From: an uncultured Prevotella sp.
Lineage (GTDB): Bacteria > Bacteroidota > Bacteroidia > Bacteroidales > Bacteroidaceae
Direction: 5' to 3'
Assembly: GCA_900542795.1 (NCBI GenBank)
Contig: UQPD01000001.1
Coordinates: 1 to 35,744 of the forward strand
Length of the DNA: 35,744 nt
Shown: positions 5,306 to 31,810 of the stretch, piece by piece
Layout of the letters: each line of letters opens with the position of its first letter
Numbering within the stretch: the stretch's first letter is position 1
The notes under the pieces: model-generated
The model's database searches: none
What the model was told of the DNA's origin: nothing
What the model saw: the letters and a program-made list of their open reading frames with translations, nothing else
Position numbers and translations under genes: made by a program

Positions 5306-5353
5306 GTAAAGTCTAAAAGTTCAGTAAAACAATATTTATTTTATTTGCGCTTC

Positions 5354-5473
5354 GCCCAGGGCGTTGCCATGGGCTATGCGCTGTTGCCCTTTCAGGGCGC
5401 ATTATAGTTTGTATTACTTATTACCTATTACTTGTTTCCACTTAGTTTGTAATACTTAATACTTAATACTTAA
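5354..5473 (-). repeat. Composite repeat: REP-like palindromes plus heptamer arrays; inverted copy of 31455-31585
   Basis: GCCCAGGGCGTTGCCATGGGC and GCCCTTTCAGGGC palindromes, then TTACTTA/TTACCTA/TTACTTG (5414-5434) and (TACTTAA)x3 (5453-5473). Positions 5384-5417 match the reverse complement of 31512-31545 at 33/34 nt. Confidence 0.85.
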
Positions 5474-5483
5474 ATTCTTTCTT

Positions 5484-6653
5484 GTGTTTAGGTCTCTTCT
5501 CATCACATCAGCACTCATACTGTCGGCTGCCTCACTCATATACTCGCATAGTTTAACACGTGCGTTGTATGCAGAAGAGGTGGCTAAGATGGATGTGTGG
5601 TCTGAAGCCATGCGATCGCTAACAACAGCAAACGAAACTACTGACCTAAACCTTGTGTTAAAGGTGATAAACAGCAACCACACCATACCTGTGGTTGTAA
5701 CCGACTCGCATGGAAACATCCTTACACAGCGTAACCTTTCGCCCGAACCCTGCGGTATTGACTCTTTACAAGAGTTACAAAAAGCTACTGAACGCATGCG
5801 CAAAAATGGAGAAATGATGCGCATGAATTTGACAACAACGAACCAACAAACACACGACTACCTATATATATACTACGAAGAGTCGGTTTTATTACGACAA
5901 CTCACCATTTATCCGTACATCCAGCTCATCGTTGTAGCCATATTCTTTATTGTAGCTATCATGGCTTTGTTGGCTTCGAAGCGTGCCGAACAAAACCGAG
6001 TGTGGGTTGGTTTGTCACGTGAAACGGCTCACCAATTGGGTACACCGATTTCATCGCTTATGGCTTGGAGCGAAGTGTTGCACGAAACATATCCTGATGA
6101 TGAGCTATTGCCCGAGATGGACAAAGACATACGACGTTTGCAACTTATAGCCGAACGTTTTTCTAAAATTGGCTCTGCACCTGAACTCAAGTTGCAAGAC
6201 GTGCGCCCCATCATTGCACAAGTGGCAGGATATTTTGACCGTCGCACTTCATCGCGTGTTCACATCACTGTAAACCTTCCCGAAGAACCTGTTGAAACGA
6301 AACTCAATGCACCACTTTTTGAATGGGTGATAGAGAATCTGTGTAAGAATGCCATTGATGCGATGCAGGGCATTGGGACTCTAACACTTACTGTATTGCC
6401 ACAAGCCACAACCCGATATGGACGCAGTTGCTTACAAATTCAAATTACGGACACGGGGAAGGGAATTGCACACAAACATTTTAAAACGGTGTTTAAACCA
6501 GGCTTTACAACCAAGAAACGAGGTTGGGGCTTGGGACTTTCGTTAGCTAAGCGCATTGTGGAGGAATACCACCATGCCCACATCTATGTGCTCAACAGTC
6601 AGGTGGGACAAGGAACTACCTTTGCCATTGAAATGGAACAGCAAATGGAATAA
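5484..6653 (+). CDS. Orphan membrane sensor histidine kinase (HisKA + HATPase_c), possibly PorY-like
   Basis: Two TM segments; H-box ETAHQLGTPISSL, N-box ENLCKNAIDA, DTGKGI, and FTTKKRGWGLGL. No response regulator is adjacent. The GTG start is uncertain. Confidence 0.85.
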   Translation: MFRSLLITSALILSAASLIYSHSLTRALYAEEVAKMDVWSEAMRSLTTANETTDLNLVLKVINSNHTIPVVVTDSHGNILTQRNLSPEPCGIDSLQELQKATERMRKNGEMMRMNLTTTNQQTHDYLYIYYEESVLLRQLTIYPYIQLIVVAIFFIVAIMALLASKRAEQNRVWVGLSRETAHQLGTPISSLMAWSEVLHETYPDDELLPEMDKDIRRLQLIAERFSKIGSAPELKLQDVRPIIAQVAGYFDRRTSSRVHITVNLPEEPVETKLNAPLFEWVIENLCKNAIDAMQGIGTLTLTVLPQATTRYGRSCLQIQITDTGKGIAHKHFKTVFKPGFTTKKRGWGLGLSLAKRIVEEYHHAHIYVLNSQVGQGTTFAIEMEQQME

Positions 6654-9556: not shown

Positions 9557-10729
9557 ATGAAGAAAATCGCTTTATGGGTGCTTACCGCAGTGGTGTTGAC
9601 CAGTTGCGGCAGCAAATCAAAACAAATGGGCGAAGCCAGCAATGACTTCGCAGTTGAAACAGTTCAAGCCACAACGGCTGACTTAAAGACTTCGTATCCC
9701 GCAACTATTAAAGGTATGCAGGACATCGAAATCCGTCCGAAAGTTTCAGGCTACTTGGTTAAGCTGCTTGTTGATGAGGGTTCTACCGTTCATAAAGGTC
9801 AACCCCTGTTCTTGATTGATTCTGAGCAATATCGTGCTTCTGTAAAGGCTGCTCAGGCTCAGATTCGTGATTGCAAGGCAAACATTGCTACACAGAAACT
9901 CACTGTTGAAAACAAGCGCATGCTCTTCAAGCAGAACATCATCTCGAACTATGACTTGCAGATGGCTGTAAACACCTTGGCTTCGTACGAGGCTCAGTTG
10001 GCTGCTGCACAAGCTCAATTACAGAGCGCTGAAGACAACTTGCGTTGGTGTACGGTTACCAGCCCTGCCGATGGTGTTGTAGGTTCTATTCCCTACCGCG
10101 TTGGTAGCTTGGTTAGCGCACAGTCTGCTGAAGCTTTGACTACGGTGTCTAACATCTCTAAGATGTATGTTTACTTCTCAATGACTGAAAAGCAGCTTTT
10201 GGCACTTACTCGTGAAGCTGGTGGCGTTAATGCTGCTATCAAGAAGATGCCTGCAGTAAGTTTGGTTCTCTCTGATGGTTCTACTTACAGCCAAAATGGT
10301 ACAATCAGCACAGTTAGCGGTGTGATTGACCCTTCTACGGGTTCTGTACAGATGCGTGCGACTTTTGATAATGCACAACACATTCTTCGTTCTGGTGGTA
10401 CGGGTTCTATCCTCGTTCCGACTCATGCTAACGATGCTATTATAGTTCCGCAGAGTGCTACCTTTGATGTGCAGGACAAGAAGTTTGTTTACGTTGTTAA
10501 CAACGACAAGTCGGTTGCTACTCGCGAAATCACCGTTCTCCCACAAAACGATGGTCAAACTTATGTTGTTGCCTCGGGGCTCCGCTCAGGCGAACGCATC
10601 GTTGTTGACGGTGTTAACCAACTAAAGAATGGTCAGAAGATTAACCCCATCTCTCGCGCACAACTCCAAGCCAACCAAAAGAAGGAACAACAGGCTATGA
10701 AAGATGGCAAGATGCCGGGGGAAAAATAA
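9557..10729 (+). CDS. RND efflux periplasmic adaptor (membrane fusion lipoprotein)
   Basis: Lipobox LTSC, EIRPKVSG, lipoyl half-motif V-x-EG-xx-V-x-KGQ-x-LF-x-ID, coiled-coil hairpin, SPADGVVG and SGL-xx-GERIVVDG. Confidence 0.93.
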   Translation: MKKIALWVLTAVVLTSCGSKSKQMGEASNDFAVETVQATTADLKTSYPATIKGMQDIEIRPKVSGYLVKLLVDEGSTVHKGQPLFLIDSEQYRASVKAAQAQIRDCKANIATQKLTVENKRMLFKQNIISNYDLQMAVNTLASYEAQLAAAQAQLQSAEDNLRWCTVTSPADGVVGSIPYRVGSLVSAQSAEALTTVSNISKMYVYFSMTEKQLLALTREAGGVNAAIKKMPAVSLVLSDGSTYSQNGTISTVSGVIDPSTGSVQMRATFDNAQHILRSGGTGSILVPTHANDAIIVPQSATFDVQDKKFVYVVNNDKSVATREITVLPQNDGQTYVVASGLRSGERIVVDGVNQLKNGQKINPISRAQLQANQKKEQQAMKDGKMPGEK

Positions 10730-10737
10730 GATGTAAT

Positions 10738-11302
10738 TAAGTAATAAGTAACAAGTAATAAGTAATACATTCTTGCTTATCTCTCATATATACCTTGGGA
10801 AATGCAATAAATAACGAGAAGTAAGAAGTTGCAAGTGAGAAATAACAGGTAATACATTCTTGCTTATATCTTGTACATAACTTCTGAAACTCTTTATGAA
10901 AAAAGATGATGACATAAAGTATAAAAAAGCAAAGAAATTTGCAATACGAATTATTAAGTTTAGCAGATTCTTAAAACGTGAAAAGCGTGAATTCGAAATT
11001 GCTAAACAAATAATACGTTCTGGCACTTCGATTGGAGCAAACATAGCTGAAGCCCAATATGCTGAAAGTAATTCAGACTTTGTACATAAACTGAGACTTG
11101 CTCTTAAAGAATCAAGTGAAACGCATTATTGGTTAGAATTGCTTTACGAATCTGAAACGATTGATAAAAAGATTTATCTTTCTTTAGAAGCAGATTGTCA
11201 AGAACTAATCAAAATGCTTACCTTTATTGTCAACAAGAAAAAAGAATAGATTTCAATTTTCATTAGTAAAGCTATTACTTATTACTTTTTACTTATTACT
11301 TC
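10738..11302. mobile_element. Putative heptamer-inverted-repeat-bounded element carrying a four-helix-bundle gene
   Basis: Left arm TAAGTAA TAAGTAA CAAGTAA TAAGTAA TACATTCTTG (10738-10775); right arm TTACTTA TTACTTT TTACTTA TTACTTC (11275-11302), the reverse complement of the left arm. It interrupts the normally adjacent MFP-permease pair. Mobility is inferred. Confidence 0.6.
10896..11249 (+). CDS. Four-helix-bundle protein (23S rRNA intervening-sequence protein family, TIGR02436-like)
   Basis: Signature KQIIRSGTSIGANIAEA...S-xx-DFVHKL-x-LALKE-xx-ET-x-YWLELL; 117 aa; visibly more AT-rich than its neighbours. Confidence 0.9.
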   Translation: MKKDDDIKYKKAKKFAIRIIKFSRFLKREKREFEIAKQIIRSGTSIGANIAEAQYAESNSDFVHKLRLALKESSETHYWLELLYESETIDKKIYLSLEADCQELIKMLTFIVNKKKE

Positions 11303-11315
11303 AAAAAAATAAACT

Positions 11316-14300
11316 ATGACTCTAGATAGATTTATAAATCGTCCGGTACTTTCTACCGTGATTTCTATTGTGATTGTCATATTGGGTGTATTGGGTTTAA
11401 CTTCACTCCCTATCGTCCAATATCCTGACATCGCACCACCTACAGTGCAGGTGAGCACCACTTATACGGGTGCAAATGCACAAACCGTGTTGAACTCTGT
11501 GATTGCTCCTCTTGAAGAGCAAATCAATGGTGTAGAAAACATGGACTACATGACATCTACCGCAACCAATACAGGTTCGGCTTCTATCCAAATTACCTTT
11601 AAGATGGGTACCAACCCCGATATGGCTGCCGTGAACGTACAAAACCGTGTGGCAAAAGCACAAGGTTTGTTGCCCTCGGAAGTTACTCAGGTAGGTGTGA
11701 TTACACAAAAGCGTCAGAACTCAATGTTGCTCATCTTCTCAGTAGCTGATGCTGAGGACCGTTACGATGAGGCGTTTATTGAGAACTATGCCAAGATTAA
11801 CATCATTCCGCAAATTCAGCGTGTAAAGGGTGTGGGTGATGCTCAGGTTATGGGTGCCGACTACTCTATGCGTATTTGGCTTAATCCTGAAAAGATGGCT
11901 GAATACCACTTGATGCCTACTGACATTAGCGGTGTTTTGGCAGAACAAAATATTGAAGCTGCTCCAGGTAATATTGGTGAACGCGAAAACCAAACCTTCC
12001 AGTATACTTTGCGTTACAAAGGTCGTTTAAGCCAAGTTCCTGAATTTGAGAATATAGTTATTAAGGCTAACGACGATGGTACAATCATCCGCTTAAAGGA
12101 TGTGGCTCGCGTTGAATTGGGCCGTATGACCTACTCGTTTGCTGGTAAGGTTAATGGCCATAAGGCTGTTACCTGTATGGTATCGCAGATGGCAGGATCA
12201 AATGCTACTGAAATTATTCAGGACTGCGAAAAGTTGCTCGACGAAACACAGAAGACATTGCCCCAAGGTATGAAGATTACCGTGGCACAAAATGTCAACG
12301 ACTTCCTCTTTGCCTCTATCCACGAGGTTATTAAGACCCTTATCGAGGCATTTATCCTCGTGTTTATTGTGGTGTATATCTTCTTGCAGGATATGCGAAG
12401 CACCATTATCCCATCGGTTGCTATCCCCGTAGCATTGATTGGTACTTTCTTTGCGCTCTACATTATTGGCTTCTCAATTAACTTGCTCACCCTCTCGGCT
12501 ATGGTGCTTGCCATTGCGATTGTAGTGGACGATGCCATTGTGGTGGTTGAAGGTGTACATGCCAAGTTGGACCAAGGCTATACTTCGGCACGTAAGGCTT
12601 CAATCGATGCCATGCGCGAATTAGGCTCGGCTATCGTTTCAATTACCTTGGTTATGATGGCAGTGTTCGTGCCCGTAAGCTTTATGTCGGGTACCTCGGG
12701 TGTGTTCTACCGTCAGTTTGGTTTGACCATGGCAATTGCCATTGGTTTCTCTGCATTGAACGCCCTTACCCTCTCTCCTGCCCTTTGTGCCATTTTGCTG
12801 AAGCCACACAAGGCTCATGGCGAGGAAGAAGAATCGCTCAAAGAACGTATGGGCAAGGCTTACAAGGCTGCTGGCAGAACCATGTATCAGCGCTATGCTG
12901 AGAGCATCGGTCGCATTCTGCACCCCAGCCTCACTCTCATCTTGGTCATCATCTCTATCATTGGTTTGATTTTTGGTGGTTTCAACTTCAGTTCCCACCC
13001 CGTAATCACCATTATCCTCTCTATCGTAGCCATCATGGCATTCATTGGTTTGACTACGAAGAAGTTCCAAAACGCATTCGAGAATTCGTTTGAAAACATC
13101 TTGAAGTCGTACAAGAAGAAGGTGCTCATCTTCATTCAGCGTCCTTGGCTCTCACTCGGTTTGGTAACGGGTAGTATTGCCTTGCTTATTTGGATGATGA
13201 ACATTACACCTACAGCCATGGTGCCTGCCGAAGATACGGGTACGATTATGGGTGTTGTGACTATGCCTCCTGGTACCTCGCAAGACCGCACTGAAGCTTA
13301 CCTTAACAAGGTTGACAGCTTGGTACGTTCATGTCCTTCTGTCGAAATTAGCACCATCGTCTCGGGTTACTCATTCATTGGTGGTCAAGGTCCTTCTTAC
13401 GGTTCATTCATCATCAAGTTGAAAGATTGGGAAGAACGTTCGATGAAGGAAAGTTCAACTGTTATCTTTGCCAACCTCTACCTTCGCTCACGCGATGTGT
13501 TTAAGGATGCTCAGGTACTCTTCTTCCAGCCGCCTATGATTACAGGTTATGGTGTAACCAATGGTTTCACCCTCAATTTGCAAGACCGTACGGGTGGCGA
13601 CTTGAACAAGTTCTACCAAGTAGCTCAAACCTTCTTGGCAGACTTGCAGAAGCGTCCTGAAATTGAATCGGCACAGACAACCTTCAACACCAACTTCCCG
13701 CAATACACCATCGATATTGATGCAGCCAAGTGTAAGCGTGCAGGTCTTTCGCCCCGAGACATCTTGACTACATTGCAGGGTTATTATGGTGGTCTTTACG
13801 CATCAAACTTCAACCGTTTCGGTAAGATTTATCGTGTAATGATTCAGGGTGAACAAGCTGATCGTGCTAACCTCGAAAGTCTTTACAAGATTAAGGTGCG
13901 CAACGGCTCAGAAATGGCTCCTATCACAGAGTTCATGACGATTACCCCAACTTATGGTCCTGACAACATCAACCGTTTCAACATGTACACCTCTATGGCT
14001 GTGAATGGTAACCCTGCAAGTGGTTACACCTCTGGTCAGGCCATTAAGGCGATTGAAGAAGTTGCAGAAAAGAGTTTGCCCACGGGTTACTCATTTGAGT
14101 TCTCAGGTCAGACACGCGAAGAACAACAAAACTCTGGTAGCACCACGGCTATTGTGTTTGTACTCTGCTTCGTCTTCATCTACCTCTTGTTGGCTGCACA
14201 GTACGAGAGCTACATGCTTCCGTTTGCCGTATTGCTTTCAGTACCCTTCGGTCTTGCAGGTTCGTTCCTCTTCATTCAGGGCGTAGGTGCTATCAATAGC

Positions 14301-14735
14301 ATTGTACCTATCTTTGGTGAAGCCGCTAATAACATCTACGTGCAGATTGCATTGATTATGTTGATGGGTCTGTTGGCTAAGAATGCCATCCTTATTGTAG
14401 AGTTCGCTCTCGAACGTCGCAAGATGGGTATGAGCATCTCTTGGGCTGCCGTGTTGGGTGCTGGTGCTCGTTTGCGTCCTATCTTGATGACTTCTTTGGC
14501 AATGATTATTGGTTTGTTACCTTTGATGTTCTCATTTGGTGTAGGTGCTAACGCAAACCGCTCACTCGGTACTTCTGCTATCGGCGGTATGTTGATTGGT
14601 ATGATTTTCCAGATCTTCATCGTTCCTTCATTGTTCGTTATCTTTGAATATCTACAAGAAAAGATTAAGCCCATCACTTGGGAAGATATGGACAATAGCG
14701 AAGCAAGCTCTGATATTGAACAGTATACTAAATAA
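11316..14735 (+). CDS. RND efflux permease (HAE1/AcrB family), with an extra internal segment
   Basis: FINRPV, QYPDIAPP, AIAIVVDDAIVVVE, LAKNAILIVEFA and RLRPILMTS; 1139 aa. Confidence 0.95.
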   Translation: MTLDRFINRPVLSTVISIVIVILGVLGLTSLPIVQYPDIAPPTVQVSTTYTGANAQTVLNSVIAPLEEQINGVENMDYMTSTATNTGSASIQITFKMGTNPDMAAVNVQNRVAKAQGLLPSEVTQVGVITQKRQNSMLLIFSVADAEDRYDEAFIENYAKINIIPQIQRVKGVGDAQVMGADYSMRIWLNPEKMAEYHLMPTDISGVLAEQNIEAAPGNIGERENQTFQYTLRYKGRLSQVPEFENIVIKANDDGTIIRLKDVARVELGRMTYSFAGKVNGHKAVTCMVSQMAGSNATEIIQDCEKLLDETQKTLPQGMKITVAQNVNDFLFASIHEVIKTLIEAFILVFIVVYIFLQDMRSTIIPSVAIPVALIGTFFALYIIGFSINLLTLSAMVLAIAIVVDDAIVVVEGVHAKLDQGYTSARKASIDAMRELGSAIVSITLVMMAVFVPVSFMSGTSGVFYRQFGLTMAIAIGFSALNALTLSPALCAILLKPHKAHGEEEESLKERMGKAYKAAGRTMYQRYAESIGRILHPSLTLILVIISIIGLIFGGFNFSSHPVITIILSIVAIMAFIGLTTKKFQNAFENSFENILKSYKKKVLIFIQRPWLSLGLVTGSIALLIWMMNITPTAMVPAEDTGTIMGVVTMPPGTSQDRTEAYLNKVDSLVRSCPSVEISTIVSGYSFIGGQGPSYGSFIIKLKDWEERSMKESSTVIFANLYLRSRDVFKDAQVLFFQPPMITGYGVTNGFTLNLQDRTGGDLNKFYQVAQTFLADLQKRPEIESAQTTFNTNFPQYTIDIDAAKCKRAGLSPRDILTTLQGYYGGLYASNFNRFGKIYRVMIQGEQADRANLESLYKIKVRNGSEMAPITEFMTITPTYGPDNINRFNMYTSMAVNGNPASGYTSGQAIKAIEEVAEKSLPTGYSFEFSGQTREEQQNSGSTTAIVFVLCFVFIYLLLAAQYESYMLPFAVLLSVPFGLAGSFLFIQGVGAINSIVPIFGEAANNIYVQIALIMLMGLLAKNAILIVEFALERRKMGMSISWAAVLGAGARLRPILMTSLAMIIGLLPLMFSFGVGANANRSLGTSAIGGMLIGMIFQIFIVPSLFVIFEYLQEKIKPITWEDMDNSEASSDIEQYTK

Positions 14736-14736
14736 T

Positions 14737-14942
14737 TTAAGTATTAAGTATTAAGTATTAAGTATTACATTCTTATGAGATGCTTATGAGATGCTTATGA
14801 GAAGCTTAGGAGATGCTTAGGAGATGCTTAATGTAATATAAGTAAATGAGGTTCTTTTGAAGAACTTCGGTATTAAGTATTATATCACAACGAGGTACAC
14901 ACCTTGCAATGTAATACTTAATACTTATTACTTAATACTTAA
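14737..14942. mobile_element. MITE-like 206-bp element with 35-bp heptamer terminal inverted repeats and an internal 11-mer tandem array
   Basis: (TTAAGTA)x4 TTACATT (14737-14771) versus AATGTAA TACTTAA TACTTAT TACTTAA TACTTAA (14908-14942), 34/35 complementary. Inside is CTTA(T/G)GAGA(T/A)G x5 (14772-14826). Confidence 0.75.
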
Positions 14943-14960
14943 TATTTTACCCTTGTTATT

Positions 14961-16364
14961 ATGAACAAATTATTTCCTATTATAGGTTGCACACTTCTGA
15001 TGGCAAGCTGCACGGGAATCTATAAAAACTATGAGCGCCCGCAGAACTTGACTCAGAACATTGACAGTCTCTACCGCAACACTACCGAAAATGTGGTGAA
15101 AGCAGACACTGCCAATTATGGCAACACACCTTGGCAACAGGTGTTTACCGACCCGCAACTGCAAACGCTCATCAATAAGGCTCTTGCCAACAACACCAAC
15201 TTGCTTAATGCCGACCTTAACATTCAGCAAATTCAAGCTGGACTGAAAATGGAACGCTTGGCTTACTACCCAAGCATTGCCTTCCAACCCCAAGGTAGTA
15301 TGACAAGCTGGGACTTTAACAAGGCAAGCAAAACTTACGCATTCCCCATTGCAGCAAGTTGGCAATTCGGTTCTATGGGTACAATTCGCAACACCAAGAA
15401 GCAGTACGAAATGAACCTCGAAATGACGAAAGCTGCAAAACAGGCTACACGCACTGCTATTATTGCAAACGTTGCGAACCTCTACTACACCTTGCAGATG
15501 CTCGATGAACAGCTCAAGACTACACAAGCTACTATCAAAATCTGGGCTGAGAACGTACGTGCTATGGAGGCTATGAAAGAAGGTGGCATGACAACGCAAG
15601 CTGCTGTGTCACAAGCAAAGGCTAACTACTATAACTTGCAAGGCACGGTTCCCACACTGAAGAATAGCATTACGCAAACTGAGAATGCACTTTGCACATT
15701 ACTTTGCGAAGCTCCCCACAACATCAGCCGTGGTGCATTCAATGCCGACAACTTCCCTGCACAATATGCCATTGGCATGCCTGTTCAACTCTTGGCTAAC
15801 CGCCCCGACGTACATGCTGCCGAAATGAAGATTGCCGCTGCATTCTATGGCGTAAACATTGCTAAATCTGCCTTCTACCCCTCGCTCAACATCACAGCAC
15901 AAGGTAGCTGGACTAACAATGCGGGTATGATTGTTAATCCAGGTAAGATTTTAGCAACATTGCTCGGTTCTATTACGCAACCCTTGTTTACAAATGGCAA
16001 ATTAAAGGCAAACTTAAAGATTACGCAGTTGCAATATGAAGCTGCGCAGAACGACTTTAAGTCTACCCTTCTTAATGCAGGACAAGAGGTAAGCAATGCC
16101 TTGGCACAATATCAAGCTGCTGCTCAAAAGGAAGAAGCTTGCAAACTGCAAGTGGCTGAACTTACCACGGCACTCGACAACACCAAGATGCTCTTCCAAC
16201 ACAGCACAGGTACCTCATATCTTGAGACACTTACTGCCCAGCAGAGCCTTATCCAAGTTCAGTTGTCGCTCATCTCTGACAAATTCGACAAGGTGCAAGC
16301 TGCCATTAACCTCTATCAGGCTCTTGGCGGTGGACGCGAAGTTGAAACAAACAATAATAACTAA
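14961..16364 (+). CDS. TolC/OprM-family outer-membrane efflux lipoprotein
   Basis: Lipobox MASC, W-xx-F-x-DP-x-L, LLANRPDV, AFYPSL and LYQALGGG. Confidence 0.93.
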   Translation: MNKLFPIIGCTLLMASCTGIYKNYERPQNLTQNIDSLYRNTTENVVKADTANYGNTPWQQVFTDPQLQTLINKALANNTNLLNADLNIQQIQAGLKMERLAYYPSIAFQPQGSMTSWDFNKASKTYAFPIAASWQFGSMGTIRNTKKQYEMNLEMTKAAKQATRTAIIANVANLYYTLQMLDEQLKTTQATIKIWAENVRAMEAMKEGGMTTQAAVSQAKANYYNLQGTVPTLKNSITQTENALCTLLCEAPHNISRGAFNADNFPAQYAIGMPVQLLANRPDVHAAEMKIAAAFYGVNIAKSAFYPSLNITAQGSWTNNAGMIVNPGKILATLLGSITQPLFTNGKLKANLKITQLQYEAAQNDFKSTLLNAGQEVSNALAQYQAAAQKEEACKLQVAELTTALDNTKMLFQHSTGTSYLETLTAQQSLIQVQLSLISDKFDKVQAAINLYQALGGGREVETNNNN

Positions 16365-28456: not shown

Positions 28457-28529
28457 AGCCGAAAGCGGGACTCGAACCCGCGACCTATTCATTACGAATG
28501 AATTGCTCTACCAACTGAGCTATTTCGGC
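28457..28529 (-). tRNA. tRNA-Thr (anticodon CGT)
   Basis: Reverse complement GCCGAAATAGCTCAGTTGGTAGAGCAATTCATTCGTAATGAATAGGTCGCGGGTTCGAGTCCCGCTTTCGGCT folds as a cloverleaf; CCA is not encoded. Confidence 0.95.
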
Positions 28530-28543
28530 TGAGCATTTTTGAG

Positions 28544-28617
28544 AGCCTCTTGTCGGATTCGAACCAACGACCCCGAGATTACAAATCACGTGCTCTGGCC
28601 AACTGAGCTAAAGAGGC
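28544..28617 (-). tRNA. tRNA-Thr (anticodon TGT)
   Basis: Reverse complement GCCTCTTTAGCTCAGTTGGCCAGAGCACGTGATTTGTAATCTCGGGGTCGTTGGTTCGAATCCGACAAGAGGCT. Confidence 0.95.
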
Positions 28618-28618
28618 G

Positions 28619-28719
28619 GGTGGGTAAGCTAACTGCATCGCGTCGCTACAACCTGTTACCTTTGCTGCGGTCAAGCCCTGGAGGATTCACAGGGAGCTGA
28701 CCGTGCAGCACTTACCCAT
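28619..28719 (-). ncRNA. ffs: Signal recognition particle RNA (small bacterial SRP RNA)
   Basis: About 100-nt rod with paired ends TGGGTAAG / CTTACCCA and a helix-8-like core CAGG-GCTTGACCGC-AGCAAAGGTAA. Confidence 0.82.
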
Positions 28720-28783
28720 GTAATAAATAGCAAATCGGAAACGTTTCCTTATTTAAAAGGCATCCCTTTCGTTTTTGCGAGTG

Positions 28784-30593: not shown

Positions 30594-31451
30594 ATGAGAC
30601 AGTTAAAAGTTTCAGTCACCATTACCGAACGTAGTGGCGAAGCTATTGAAAGATATTTACAAGACATTAACCGTGAAGAATTAATTACTCCCGACGAAGA
30701 AACTGAATTAGCACGCCGCATTCACAAGGGCGATGAACAAGCACTCGAAAAGTTGGTTAAAGCTAATTTACGTTTTGTGGTGAGTGTAGCCAAACAATAT
30801 TTAGGACAGGGCATAGGACTGATTGACCTTATTAATGAAGGGAATATTGGACTCATTACAGCTGCTCGCAAATATGATGAAACGCGCGGTTTTAAGTTTA
30901 TTTCGTATGCAGTGTGGTGGATTAGACAGAGCATTTTACAAGCCTTGGCAGAGAATAGCCGTTTGGTACGCCTTCCACTCAACCAAGTGGGTAATGTAAG
31001 CAAGGTTAATCGATTTCTCAACAAATTTGTGCAAGAAAATGAGCGTCGTCCGTCGCCCGAAGAAGTTGCCGAAGCCTTAGGTGTGGAAGATGGCAAGATG
31101 AACAGTGTGCTATTTTCGGCTGGTCGCCACATCTCTATGGACGCTCCTTTGGTTGAGGACGAGGATAGTTGTTTACTCGACTTAATGACGAACCAAGATA
31201 GCGATGTAACTGACTCTGCCTTAATTTCAGAGTCGATGAAGGAAGAAATTCATCGTGCCCTTGATGCGCTCCCCGAACGCGAAGCTGAGGTTATCAAAAT
31301 GTATTTTGGTATCAATACTCCCGAAATGGGACTTGAAGAAATTGGCCAACACCTCAACCTTAGCCGCGAACGTGTAAGACAAATCAAAGAGAAAGCTTTG
31401 ATGCTGTTAAGAAATGCACAAATTGGAACGGTGTTGAAAGAATACCTTTAA
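30594..31451 (+). CDS. RpoD/SigA-family RNA polymerase sigma factor (short Bacteroidetes type, lacking region 1.1), probably a paralog
   Basis: NLRFVVSVAKQY, DLINEGNIGL, DETRGFKFISYAVWWIRQSI and region 4 LEEIG-xx-L-x-LSRERVRQIKEKAL. Confidence 0.92.
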   Translation: MRQLKVSVTITERSGEAIERYLQDINREELITPDEETELARRIHKGDEQALEKLVKANLRFVVSVAKQYLGQGIGLIDLINEGNIGLITAARKYDETRGFKFISYAVWWIRQSILQALAENSRLVRLPLNQVGNVSKVNRFLNKFVQENERRPSPEEVAEALGVEDGKMNSVLFSAGRHISMDAPLVEDEDSCLLDLMTNQDSDVTDSALISESMKEEIHRALDALPEREAEVIKMYFGINTPEMGLEEIGQHLNLSRERVRQIKEKALMLLRNAQIGTVLKEYL

Positions 31452-31454
31452 TAA

Positions 31455-31810
31455 TTAAGTATTAAGTGTTAAGTATTAAGTATTACATTCTTGATGAGTT
31501 CTAAGTAATAGGTAATACAAACTATAATGCGCCTTGAAAGGGCAAACTGTGCATAGCCCCAGGGCAAGCGAAGCGACACCCTGGGATAAGTAATACATTC
31601 TTGACAAGTACTAAGTAATAAGTAACTCAAGTTTCGGATTTAGTCAAGACGGGCTGAATTATCGTGCAAACCGAATACAATCAAGCTTGCTTGAATTGTT
31701 GAGGTGCAGCCGATAATGCATAGCAAAGCCCAAAAGCGCCCAGGGCAAGCGAAGCGACACCCTGGGGTTACGGATTGCCATAGCATTGAGCCCTGTAAGG
31801 GCAAAAGCAT
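31455..31810 (+). repeat. Mosaic intergenic repeat cluster (heptamer arrays, REP-like palindromes, long hairpin)
   Basis: (TTAAGTR)x4 TTACATTCTTG (31455-31493); further TAAGTAA-type units at 31502, 31587 and 31612; identical 28-mers CCCAGGGCAAGCGAAGCGACACCCTGGG at 31558 and 31739; GCCTTGAAAGGGC and GCCCTGTAAGGGC; hairpin 31658-31717. Confidence 0.85.

Follow-up and report, generated by a model that had tools for sequence, protein, structure and literature searches.

A PF05635 gene between inverted heptamer arrays in the spacer of an RND efflux operon shares its design with the intervening sequences of 23S rRNA

The window analyzed here, a 35,744-nt stretch of DNA from an uncultured Prevotella species, was found to carry a cassette design known from the intervening sequences (IVS) of 23S rRNA in a different setting, the mRNA spacer of an RND efflux operon. 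A gene of the PF05635 (S23p) family is enclosed there by inverted arrays of tandem heptamers, and the 565-bp insert (10738-11302) is probably an IVS-type gene cassette that rides on the host transcript, a reading to which a probability of about 0.6 was assigned. The inverted-array layout is the rule for PF05635 genes, both in the genus and across phyla, and the arms of this cassette are copies of a dispersed, mostly gene-less family of 155 arrays. In the literature searched, the link between PF05635 and such arrays was found in no paper beyond that on Coxiella.

Profile matches identified the upstream host as an RND membrane-fusion protein (MFP) gene of the HlyD family (9557-10729), the downstream host as an RND permease gene of the AcrB family (11316-14735), and the third gene of the operon as that of an outer-membrane efflux protein (OEP; 14961-16364), all on the + strand. 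The PF05635 gene and its arms, on the same strand, occupy the spacer between the MFP and permease genes. The MFP reading frame ends in a natural TAA that is kept in relatives, and the first heptamer starts at 10738, 8 nt past this stop. The 5′ arm (10738-10767; TAAGTAA TAAGTAA CAAGTAA TAAGTAA) contains stop codons in all three frames and pairs with 11273-11301. The 3′ arm, mapped by repeat search to 11273-11302, comprises four ATTACTT-type (TTACTTA-type) heptamers in reverse complement to the 5′ arm, and ends at 11301/11302, 13 nt ahead of the permease ATG (11316). As delimited by the repeat search, the arms (10739-10767 and 11273-11301) are 29 nt each, 97% complementary, and separated by 505 nt; Tandem Repeats Finder placed period-7 arrays at 10733-10767 and 11273-11301. 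Sequence inspection located the junction motif GTAATACATTCTTGCTTAT twice, at 10762 (10762-10780) and at 10849. The second copy belongs to a degenerate second array (10818-10867, repeat search), which forms the inner repeat of a tandem duplication of 87 nt (10739-10802 versus 10826-10889, 77%); its pairing with the 3′ arm reaches just 73-74%. The earlier note on this DNA, made from its letters, had placed the reading frames, heptamers, arms, and GTAATACATTCTTGCTTAT correctly. The cassette lies at the MFP/permease junction, and not in helix 9, 25, or 45 of a 23S rRNA gene; no rRNA was found in the window, and no Rfam family matched the arrays or the cassette. By the features used to recognize a MITE, the cassette has inverted arms and no transposase, and a target-site duplication is unreadable, because filled and empty spacers fail to align between species.

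The gene itself (10896-11249, sense with the operon) encodes a predicted four-helix-bundle protein of 117 aa that matched PF05635 with an E-value of 1e-28 (100.1 bits, cut-off 33.8) and TIGR02436 with an E-value of 1.4e-31 (108.9 bits, cut-off 24). A sequence match to the solved chain 2rld_A (E 3.9e-30) covered residues 3-114. Values of dN/dS between species were 0.12, 0.19, and 0.08, and the cassette gene is under purifying selection. It is the one PF05635 gene of the genome that carries it (G000; 2.36 Mb, 209 contigs, 87.5% complete). Another candidate in this genome, the C18 ORF of 245 aa, scored a sub-threshold 27.3 bits, is bracketed by no inverted array, and was rejected as a paralog.

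The earlier note had asked whether paralogs possess inverted flanks, and most of them do. With a gene counted as armed at a flanking inverted repeat score of at least 15, arms are present at 53 of the 83 PF05635 genes of the genus (64%), with tandem arrays in 44 of the 53, and at 59 of 75 relatives drawn from many phyla (79%), the latter survey being confined to the subfamily nearest to this protein. A locus of a Segatella copri strain, a cultivable carrier, has arms with a score of 27. The best period was 7 in 33 and 8 in 15 of the 53 armed genes of the genus, and 7 in 57 of the 59 armed relatives. Among 216 control small ORFs of G000, a score of at least 15 was reached once, by the cassette gene itself. 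Clear arms are absent at 30 of 83 and 16 of 75 PF05635 genes in the two surveys, which counts against the IVS-type reading. The PF05635 ORF is co-directional with its upstream neighbor at 144 of 154 loci, compared to a baseline of 1104/1395 (79%) for adjacent pseudo-genes. The two arms differ in character: stops in all three frames occur in the 5′ arm at 59 of 112 loci versus 21 of 112 for the 3′ arm, and the 5′ arm is purine-rich at 97 of 112.

A regular-expression search for at least three AAGTAWT-like units returned 155 arrays in G000, compared to 1, 0, and 0 in three shuffles. That the arrays belong to a genome-wide family is invisible from the letters of the window. ACATTCT- forms the inner junction in 50 of the 155 arrays (ACATTCTA in 36, ACATTCTT in 14). 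The window holds four further arrays, besides those around the cassette and the element at 14739-14947. Two of them (5413-5433 and 5451-5471, − strand) lie directly upstream of an ORF starting at 5484; the other two (31457-31484 and 31606-31626, + strand) both carry a TACATTCTTG junction, and the array at 31457 begins 5 nt past the stop of the ORF 30594-31451. The element at 14739-14947 (+ strand) is a gene-less inverted pair at the permease/OMP junction of the same operon, and consists of (AAGTATT)4 plus ACATTCTT, 5.4 copies of the 11-mer CTTATGAGATG, and an inverted array (14913-14947). The element is separated by 3 nt from the permease stop on one side and by 13 nt from the OMP ATG on the other. 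An array of the AATGTGCA type is non-cognate for the protein of this locus.

Much of this distribution would also be expected if the arrays were independent dispersed DNA repeats (MITE-, REP-, or Correia-like foldbacks, or slippage-prone simple repeats) that colonize gene junctions, with the PF05635 gene as a functionally untied passenger, and with hairpins that serve only as intercistronic stabilizers, terminators, or processing sites of host messages. G000 has 13 convergent array pairs with an inner part of 34-507 nt and one more of 2835 nt, of which only one encloses a gene, and the outer ends of the arrays adjoin gene ends (median 7 nt after a co-directional stop; 42 of 76 within 15 nt). 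The variant pattern AAGTATT AAGTGTT AAGTATT AAGTATT ACATTCT is common across the family, as expected of copies of a master sequence, and sister species have unrelated hairpins at the same permease-OMP junction. In the array-rich genomes G001 and G139 (AATGTGNN type) and G094 (TTAGAGT type), no PF05635 gene was found. The excess of gene-less arrays (155 arrays and one PF05635 gene in G000) is likewise a point against the IVS-type reading, as is the prospect that junction hairpins are a host feature merely filled by repeats. On the other side, PF05635 is the sole protein-coding cargo between inverted arrays in G000, and the armed fractions of 64% and 79% stand against 1/216 control ORFs. Arm units vary between cassettes within one genome, since the four cassettes of G012 each have a different arm type, and the similarity of arm units tracks that of the proteins (Spearman -0.30; 0 of 500 permutations as low). 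All three array families examined in the genus are, moreover, abundant in every carrier of the cognate cassette (4/4, 5/5, and 3/3). Arrays unconnected with the gene are judged unlikely as the full account of the locus.

Operon comparison for empty sites bore out the claim of an insertion. The cassette was found at the MFP/permease junction in four of 20 same-genus operons (G000, G007, G012, and G017) and was absent from 16. None of the three contrary outcomes named in the earlier note, among them stable synteny regardless of repeats, was observed. In the operon tree, the cassette-less G022 is sister to G012 (support 97/96) and lies within the carrier clade, which requires at least two changes of cassette state; its junction holds a mini-hairpin remnant alone, AAGTATTAAGTAA...TTACTTATTA. 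The two arms of each cassette agree in type, which is AAGTAAT in G000 and G012 and AAGTATT in G017 and G007. The insertion is limited to a small clade and was lost once. The cassette at this site looks like one old insertion that was inherited, with one loss, and not like a recently mobile element, which qualifies the mobile cassette proposed earlier. Chance or faulty assembly is a negligible alternative. The assembly is fragmented into 209 contigs, and arrays are frequently located at contig ends, but 155 arrays were counted against 0-1 in shuffles, orthologous cassettes occupy the same site in three other genomes, and independent metagenome contigs overlap one another across the filled site (X1, 10538-10865 and 10842-11396; X3, 10806-11151 and 11126-11311). 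Contigs of four runs (X1, X3, X4, and X17) contained no joint skipping 10767-11273 and no empty-site allele.

The earlier note had also proposed that the arms form a stem, and the predicted RNA fold of 10725-11320 closes on them in both the MFE and the centroid structure (-133.9 kcal/mol, z -5.88), with none of 100 shuffles folding as well. Mismatches within the arms, scored at 51 loci, comprised 53 G.U and 46 A.C (p 0.55). This absence of a G.U excess, and with it of a sense-strand RNA signature, leaves an RNA stem indistinguishable from an inverted repeat at the DNA level, and is a further point for independent repeats. RNAduplex energies of the sense and antisense flanks were large at all loci and uninformative. 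A promoter and terminator scan, which covered sigma-70-type sites and not Bacteroidota promoters, returned none inside the cassette, and G000 encodes an RNase III domain.

If the insert is an IVS-type cassette, it would have no promoter of its own and would be transcribed together with the operon. Its arms would then zip in the RNA into a stem of about 28 bp, while the stop-rich and purine-rich 5′ arm would terminate translation arriving from upstream. By analogy with the rRNA element of Coxiella, RNase III may cut this stem, which would free a stem-capped mRNA encoding the small protein and separate the MFP message from that of the permease. Gene-less hairpins elsewhere might belong to the same element, as deletion products or as copies without a gene. 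One part of the earlier proposal was not upheld, namely that the upstream stop is re-joined to the downstream start. Since bacterial RNase III cleaves RNA but performs no re-joining, the phrase can refer to spatial proximity alone.

The abundance of arrays was found to follow the presence of matching cassettes in a scan of 121 genomes of the genus for three array families. AAGTAWT x3 gave 259, 253, 50, and 426 matches in four carriers and 0-2 in the other 117 genomes; TTAGANN x3 gave 489, 230, and 196 in three carriers, 34 in one other genome, and at most 9 in the rest; and AATGTGNN x3 gave 19-658 in five carriers. Array-rich genomes in which no cassette was found numbered 0, 1, and 4 across the three families. 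In the sister pair, AAGTAWT x3 matched 50 times in G012, which has the cassette, and once in G022, which lost it. Such co-occurrence would suit a two-part selfish or regulatory system, in which a PF05635 oligomer recognizes its cognate array and then either spreads or maintains arrays, the gene-bearing copy being autonomous and gene-less copies non-autonomous, or controls the transcripts that carry them. The correlation of protein with unit similarity points the same way, as does the modal array length of four units (72 of 155 arrays). The single solved entry with the 2rld sequence has five chains, and Xanthomonas S23p was reported to be a homopentamer (PMC4990558). Neither reverse transcriptase (PF00078, RVT_1) nor Y1 transposase (PF01797, Y1_Tnp), the two transposition-type enzyme families searched for, was found in the 87.5%-complete G000, which also fits a two-part system.

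Several observations weigh against such a system. Carriers of the same type are probably close kin, so that the perfect co-occurrence scores rest on few independent events, and the protein-unit correlation is explicable by co-inheritance alone. Arrays were found without a cognate cassette in G001 (212 matches), G139 (265), G010 (31), G124 (30), and G094 (34), and the GTTAACNN hairpin of G022 is not accompanied by a cassette of that type. No catalytic motif was observed in the 117-aa protein, and no recombinase is known to be a helical bundle of this kind. A two-part system is regarded as rather improbable. A related and broader proposal, which is possible but doubtful, is that PF05635 is the missing partner of bacterial heptamer repeats: a ring oligomer might recognize a 7-nt unit specific to it, with each subunit reading one unit. 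The gene-bearing hairpin would be the autonomous form of a selfish element that lacks a transposase, and gene-less hairpins would spread or persist only where the cognate protein is produced. Were this so, the IVS of 23S rRNA would be those elements that ended up in rRNA, and the reported over-representation of bacterial heptamer repeats would be explained.

The IVS-type cassette brings together three old loose ends, namely the origin and spread of rRNA IVS, the function of PF05635/S23p, and the excess of heptamers in bacteria. The cassette design in mRNA operons provides a natural experiment, in which sister species show the site filled, empty, or reduced to a remnant, and three repeat families rise and fall in genome-wide abundance with the presence of the matching gene. 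The idea that the ORF is a mobility or binding component becomes directly testable with one protein, one defined 28-nt array, and one stem. For annotation, small 'hypothetical' genes within operons may be inserts rather than operon members, and the breakage of these genomes into contigs at such arrays is accounted for.

Among known systems, ERIC and REP/BIME are short foldback repeats that lie at gene junctions and are co-transcribed with their neighbors. REP/REPIN elements with a RAYT were rejected as a match, given that PF01797 was not found in G000 and that the flanked gene is PF05635. PF05635 resembles Avd, the accessory protein of diversity-generating retroelements (DGR), and both are placed in one CDD family (PMC10053308). 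A DGR was rejected as well: no reverse transcriptase was found in G000 or beside the gene, the neighbors are efflux genes, and there is no template/variable repeat pair. The Correia repeat enclosed elements (CREE) of Neisseria were reported to control adjacent genes through RNase III, which they bind and which either cleaves or protects them (PMC2649163). Like the cassette, they are short foldback repeats at gene junctions that are co-transcribed with neighbors; unlike it, they have fixed inverted repeats, a conserved core, and no tandem heptamers, and no gene-bearing version is described in the accessible part of that paper (PMC2649163).

Dispersed heptamer arrays were described in Xanthomonas, with the unit GGGAATC, and in Nostoc, with the unit GGGGA(C/T)T (PMC4692102), and TAACTGA arrays that adjoin start codons were reported in Beggiatoaceae, Cyanobacteria, and Bacteroidetes (PMC4679880). 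In G000, 145 of the 155 arrays lie outside pseudo-genes, and 13 pairs are convergent. This family resembles the published ones in its intergenic tandem heptamers, its tens to hundreds of sites, and its variable copy number, and differs in its AAGTAWT unit and in sharing its arms with a PF05635 cassette (PMC4692102, PMC4679880). Xanthomonas has 70-75 convergent pairs capable of forming stem-loops, and no link to a gene is described for them in the available text (PMC4692102), which again agrees with independent repeats. None of S23, a four-helix-bundle gene, and an intervening sequence is mentioned in the available main texts of the two papers (PMC4692102, PMC4679880).

The closest counterpart is the IVS of Coxiella burnetii, which substantiated the rRNA connection drawn in the earlier note: it carries an ORF of the same family, RNase III cleaves the stem formed by its inverted repeats, and the S23p ATG is preceded by three tandem GACAGAT heptamers, whose copy number varies among strains (PMC4990558). 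ORF-bearing IVS of 23S rRNA were also reported in Leptospira, Xanthomonas, and Brucella (PMC4990558). The cassette differs from the Coxiella element in that its host is an mRNA operon spacer and not helix 45 of 23S rRNA, in that both of its arms are whole heptamer arrays, and in that these arms are part of a genome-wide family of 155 arrays (PMC4990558). Cutting by RNase III was demonstrated for the Coxiella IVS and would only by extension apply to the cassette (PMC4990558). The cassette gene is under purifying selection, whereas the Coxiella ORF was reported to be decaying and its protein probably not made, the latter being a point against the IVS-type reading (PMC4990558). In both, an S23p/PF05635 gene in the orientation of the host transcript occupies the loop of a stem built from terminal inverted repeats; both have tandem heptamers in the 5′ part; and both combine a sporadic distribution, suggestive of horizontal spread, with no recognizable mobility enzyme (PMC4990558).

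The RND efflux operon of the window consists of an MFP gene (9557-10729), a permease gene (11316-14735), and an outer-membrane protein (OMP) gene (14961-16364). Between the first two lies a four-helix-bundle ORF of 117 aa (10896-11249), which matches PF05635 (E 1e-28), TIGR02436 (E 1.4e-31), and the solved chain 2rld_A (E 3.9e-30). The earlier note had placed this ORF between inverted heptamer arrays, and all of its cassette coordinates proved correct on re-check against the sequence: four TAAGTAA-type units begin 8 nt past the MFP stop, the last of four TTACTTA-type units finishes 13 nt ahead of the permease ATG, and GTAATACATTCTTGCTTAT is present twice, at 10762 and 10849. Each arm spans 29 nt (10739-10767; 11273-11301), at 97% complementarity, and the left side of the cassette carries an 87-nt tandem duplication, the inner copy of which is a decayed array. 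In the predicted RNA fold of 10725-11320, the MFE and centroid structures both close on the arms (z -5.88), and none of 100 shuffles was as stable. The genome (G000) encodes an RNase III domain, and neither a reverse transcriptase nor a Y1 transposase was found in its assembly (completeness 87.5%). The element is best read as a four-helix-bundle cassette of the type found in intervening sequences (IVSs) of 23S rRNA, riding an mRNA operon; processing of its RNA, binding of the repeats by its protein, and any means of spread are inferences. Elsewhere in the window, 28457-28724 holds two tRNA genes and a Bacteroidales small SRP RNA (Rfam RF04183, 117.8 bits), and is ordinary.

The history of the insertion site was examined by using the MFP-permease junction to search G000 and 60 relatives (61 genomes in all) and reading the spacers of the 20 loci returned. 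The gene and inverted heptamer arms were found in four (G000, G012, G017, and G007), with AAGTAAT arms in both G000 and G012 and AAGTATT arms in both G017 and G007; the other 16 spacers are gene-less and span about 60-240 nt. The G022 spacer has no more than AAGTATTAAGTAA and TTACTTATTA around a short loop. A maximum-likelihood tree of the MFP C-terminus and permease N-terminus, which describes one operon and is not a species tree, gave (G015,(G000,(G017,G007),(G012,G022))), with support of 97/96 for G012 and G022, and requires at least two changes of the character "cassette". The simplest history, on this one operon's tree, would be a single old insertion, followed by one loss that left the mini-hairpin in G022. 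Purifying selection acts on the four operon-site proteins, with dN/dS values of 0.12, 0.19, and 0.08 for the three pairs with estimable dS, the three others being saturated. In two more distant genomes (G026 and G005; loci L021 and L022), another period-7 array (GTAAAGA TAAAAGA ...) directly follows the MFP stop, with no gene within.

Across the genus, a PF05635 match at E <=1e-5 was found in 64 of 121 genomes. In G000, the Pfam model detected a single clear copy and, below threshold, a match (27.3 bits) to the N-terminal part of a 245-aa ORF on contig C18 (L002:1054-1791); the flanks of this ORF carry two separate local hairpins, and no inverted array brackets it. Similar ORFs that share this partial match, 210-310 aa long, are present in many genomes across the genus. 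The survey comprised 88 loci: the four operon cassettes, 30 from a first listing, and 54 more taken from listed matches with E of about 1e-19 or better; excluded were three matches lying no more than about 230 nt from a contig end, two interrupted by internal stop codons, and everything weaker. The family ORF was recovered in 85 of the 88, and flanks of at least 150 nt were available in 83. The arm score, that of the best ungapped inverted repeat formed by the two 250-nt flanks of the gene, was at least 15 in 53 of these 83 loci and exceeded the maximum of 30 shuffles in 62. Among control ORFs of 90-170 aa in G000, this score was reached by 1 of 216, namely the cassette's own gene; the contrast is large but informal, the controls all coming from G000 and the loci being related. 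The arm itself is a tandem array in 44 of the 53 scoring loci; over all 53, the best period is 7 in 33 and 8 in 15, and the units vary widely (TTAGACG, GTTAACAG, GGTTATAA, GAGAAAK, AATTAGG, CAACAGA, AATGTGCA, and others).

A wider search, whose query was an alignment built from the 13 closest proteins, confirmed 598 relatives, of which the best 80 (L110-L189) were kept. Their records are labelled as at least 10 phyla, including Bacteroidota, Clostridia, Planctomycetota, a cyanobacterium, Campylobacterota, Myxococcota, Acidobacteria, Verrucomicrobia, Treponema, and Ignavibacteriota, among others. Identity to the 117-aa protein is about 46-58% (74% in one Alloprevotella sp. MAG), which, across so many phyla, suggests that the cassette has often been transferred horizontally. 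Among these best 80, the arm score was at least 15 in 59 of the 75 loci with enough flank, with period 7 in 57 of the 59; an AAT core is common to many units (AATTGAC, AATTCGG, AATGCAC, AATTCAT). Protein identity fell as unit distance rose among the 86 loci with period-7 arms (Spearman -0.30; 0 of 500 permutations as low), indicating that gene and arms travel or change together.

Where a neighbor was available, the ORF was co-directional with the gene upstream in 78 of the 81 loci of the genus survey and 66 of the 73 of the wider one, compared with a baseline of 79% for adjacent pseudo-genes of G000. The 5′ arm is purine-rich in 97 of 112 cases, and stops in all three frames are present in 59 of 112 5′ arms versus 21 of 112 3′ arms. 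Since an inverted repeat reads alike on both strands, a transcript from either side would meet the stop-rich arm first. An RNA-specific reading of the arms is spoken against by their mismatches, of which 53 are G.U and 46 A.C.

The arms are not private to the PF05635 gene. Tandem Repeats Finder located the same period-7 arrays at 5412, 5450, 14737, 14912, 31454, and 31606 of the window, and a search for at least three AAGTAWT-like units returned 155 arrays in G000 (2.36 Mb, 209 contigs), compared with 1, 0, and 0 in three shuffles. Units number three in 54 arrays, four in 72, five in 18, and six to eight in 11; the variant pattern AAGTATT AAGTGTT AAGTATT AAGTATT is common to many, as expected for copies of a master sequence, and inner junction words occur in 98 (ACAAACTA in 48, ACATTCTA in 36, and ACATTCTT in 14). 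Most arrays (145/155) lie outside pseudo-genes, and their outer ends adjoin those of genes: a co-directional stop precedes 76 of them (median distance 7 nt; within 15 nt in 42), and a start lies ahead of 58 (median 91 nt; within 15 nt in 17). Convergent pairs number 13; their inner parts span 34-507 nt, with one of 2835 nt. The sole pair enclosing a gene is the cassette at 10738-11302. A GC-rich, roughly 60-nt repeat (GCGCC.TGAAAGGGCAA...CCCTGGG...) lies directly beside heptamer arrays, in opposite orientations, at 5340-5410 and 31525-31585 of the window, and its words also follow arrays on contigs C11, C21, and C44. Nested mosaics of two direct and two inverted arrays, at C8:8629-9084 and C27:8165-8667, hold within them copies of a further repeat (GGTCAAAAATG.TCATCAATGAGCCATAAAT...) as well as a GC-rich hairpin; neither contains a PF05635-family ORF. 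Many contig ends (C5, C11, C12, C22, C23, C31, C47, C50) have an array no more than about 180 nt away. The array family is probably a main cause of fragmentation of the G000 assembly, and binned genomes may contain too few of the gene-bearing copies.

The permease-OMP spacer of the RND operon is occupied by a gene-less inverted array pair (14739-14947), within which 14772-14830 holds 5.4 tandem copies of the 11-mer CTTATGAGATG (93% matches). On metagenome contigs, the same arrays adjoin different inner sequences, indicating other copies of the family, differently filled. At this permease-OMP junction, a hairpin is constant across the species compared and its sequence is replaced: AAGTATT in G000, AAGTAAT in G012, a GC-rich palindrome in G017 and G007, GTTAACNN octamers in G022 (L193), and a GC-rich hairpin in G015. 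Either the operon needs an intercistronic hairpin here, or existing hairpins are preferred landing sites. Octamers of the GTTAACNN type also make up the arms of PF05635 cassettes from G007 and G012 (L026 and L028); G022 has the GTTAACNN hairpin, yet the only PF05635 gene found there has AATGTGCA arms.

Three array patterns were counted in the same 121 genomes. Three AAGTAWT units (at most one mismatch) gave 259, 253, 50, and 426 matches in the four carriers of the cognate cassette (G000, G007, G012, and G017) and 0-2 in the other 117 genomes. Three TTAGANN units gave 489, 230, and 196 in all three carriers (G131, G135, and G069), 34 in G094, and at most 9 elsewhere. Three AATGTGNN units (at most one mismatch) gave 658, 642, 458, 41, and 19 in all five carriers (G012, G031, G022, G017, and G129), and 265, 212, 31, and 30 in four further genomes (G139, G001, G010, and G124), with at most 8 in the rest. 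A small-type PF05635 gene was not found in G139, G001, or G010 (family at 1e-5; cognate protein at 0.01), nor was a cassette with AATGTG arms seen in G124. With such array-rich genomes lacking a detected cognate cassette, the association is strong, not absolute. Carriers of one cassette type are probably kin, and binned assemblies can miss a short gene that is bounded by high-copy repeats. One sister pair differs in the expected direction (AAGTAWT: 50 matches in G012, 1 in G022). G012 carries four cassettes with four arm types, which argues against simple homogenization of arms to a genome's dominant repeat.

The PF05635/TIGR02436 literature found concerned diversity-generating retroelements (reviewed in PMC10053308) or insertion sequences in CPR rRNA genes; no paper connecting these genes with flanking arrays of repeats in a non-rRNA context was found in a search reaching few subscription journals and no supplements, and the cassette is best read as a member of a widespread, apparently undescribed class. 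In the available text on the Coxiella IVS, an inverted-repeat stem is cut by RNase III, the ORF of its PF05635 protein (S23p) lies in sense, and GACAGAT heptamers, three in tandem, precede the ATG in copy numbers that differ by strain; a 1993 idea that the IVS ORF is possibly a mobility component is also cited there (PMC4990558). Dispersed arrays were described by Rehm et al. for Xanthomonas (GGGAATC, 70-75 convergent pairs; PMC4692102) and by MacGregor (TAACTGA; PMC4679880), and the available text of both papers makes no mention of the PF05635 family. The present locus contributes a dated gain and a dated loss at a single site, copies with and without the gene within one operon, and, across the genus, the co-occurrence of each family of repeats with the gene that belongs to it.
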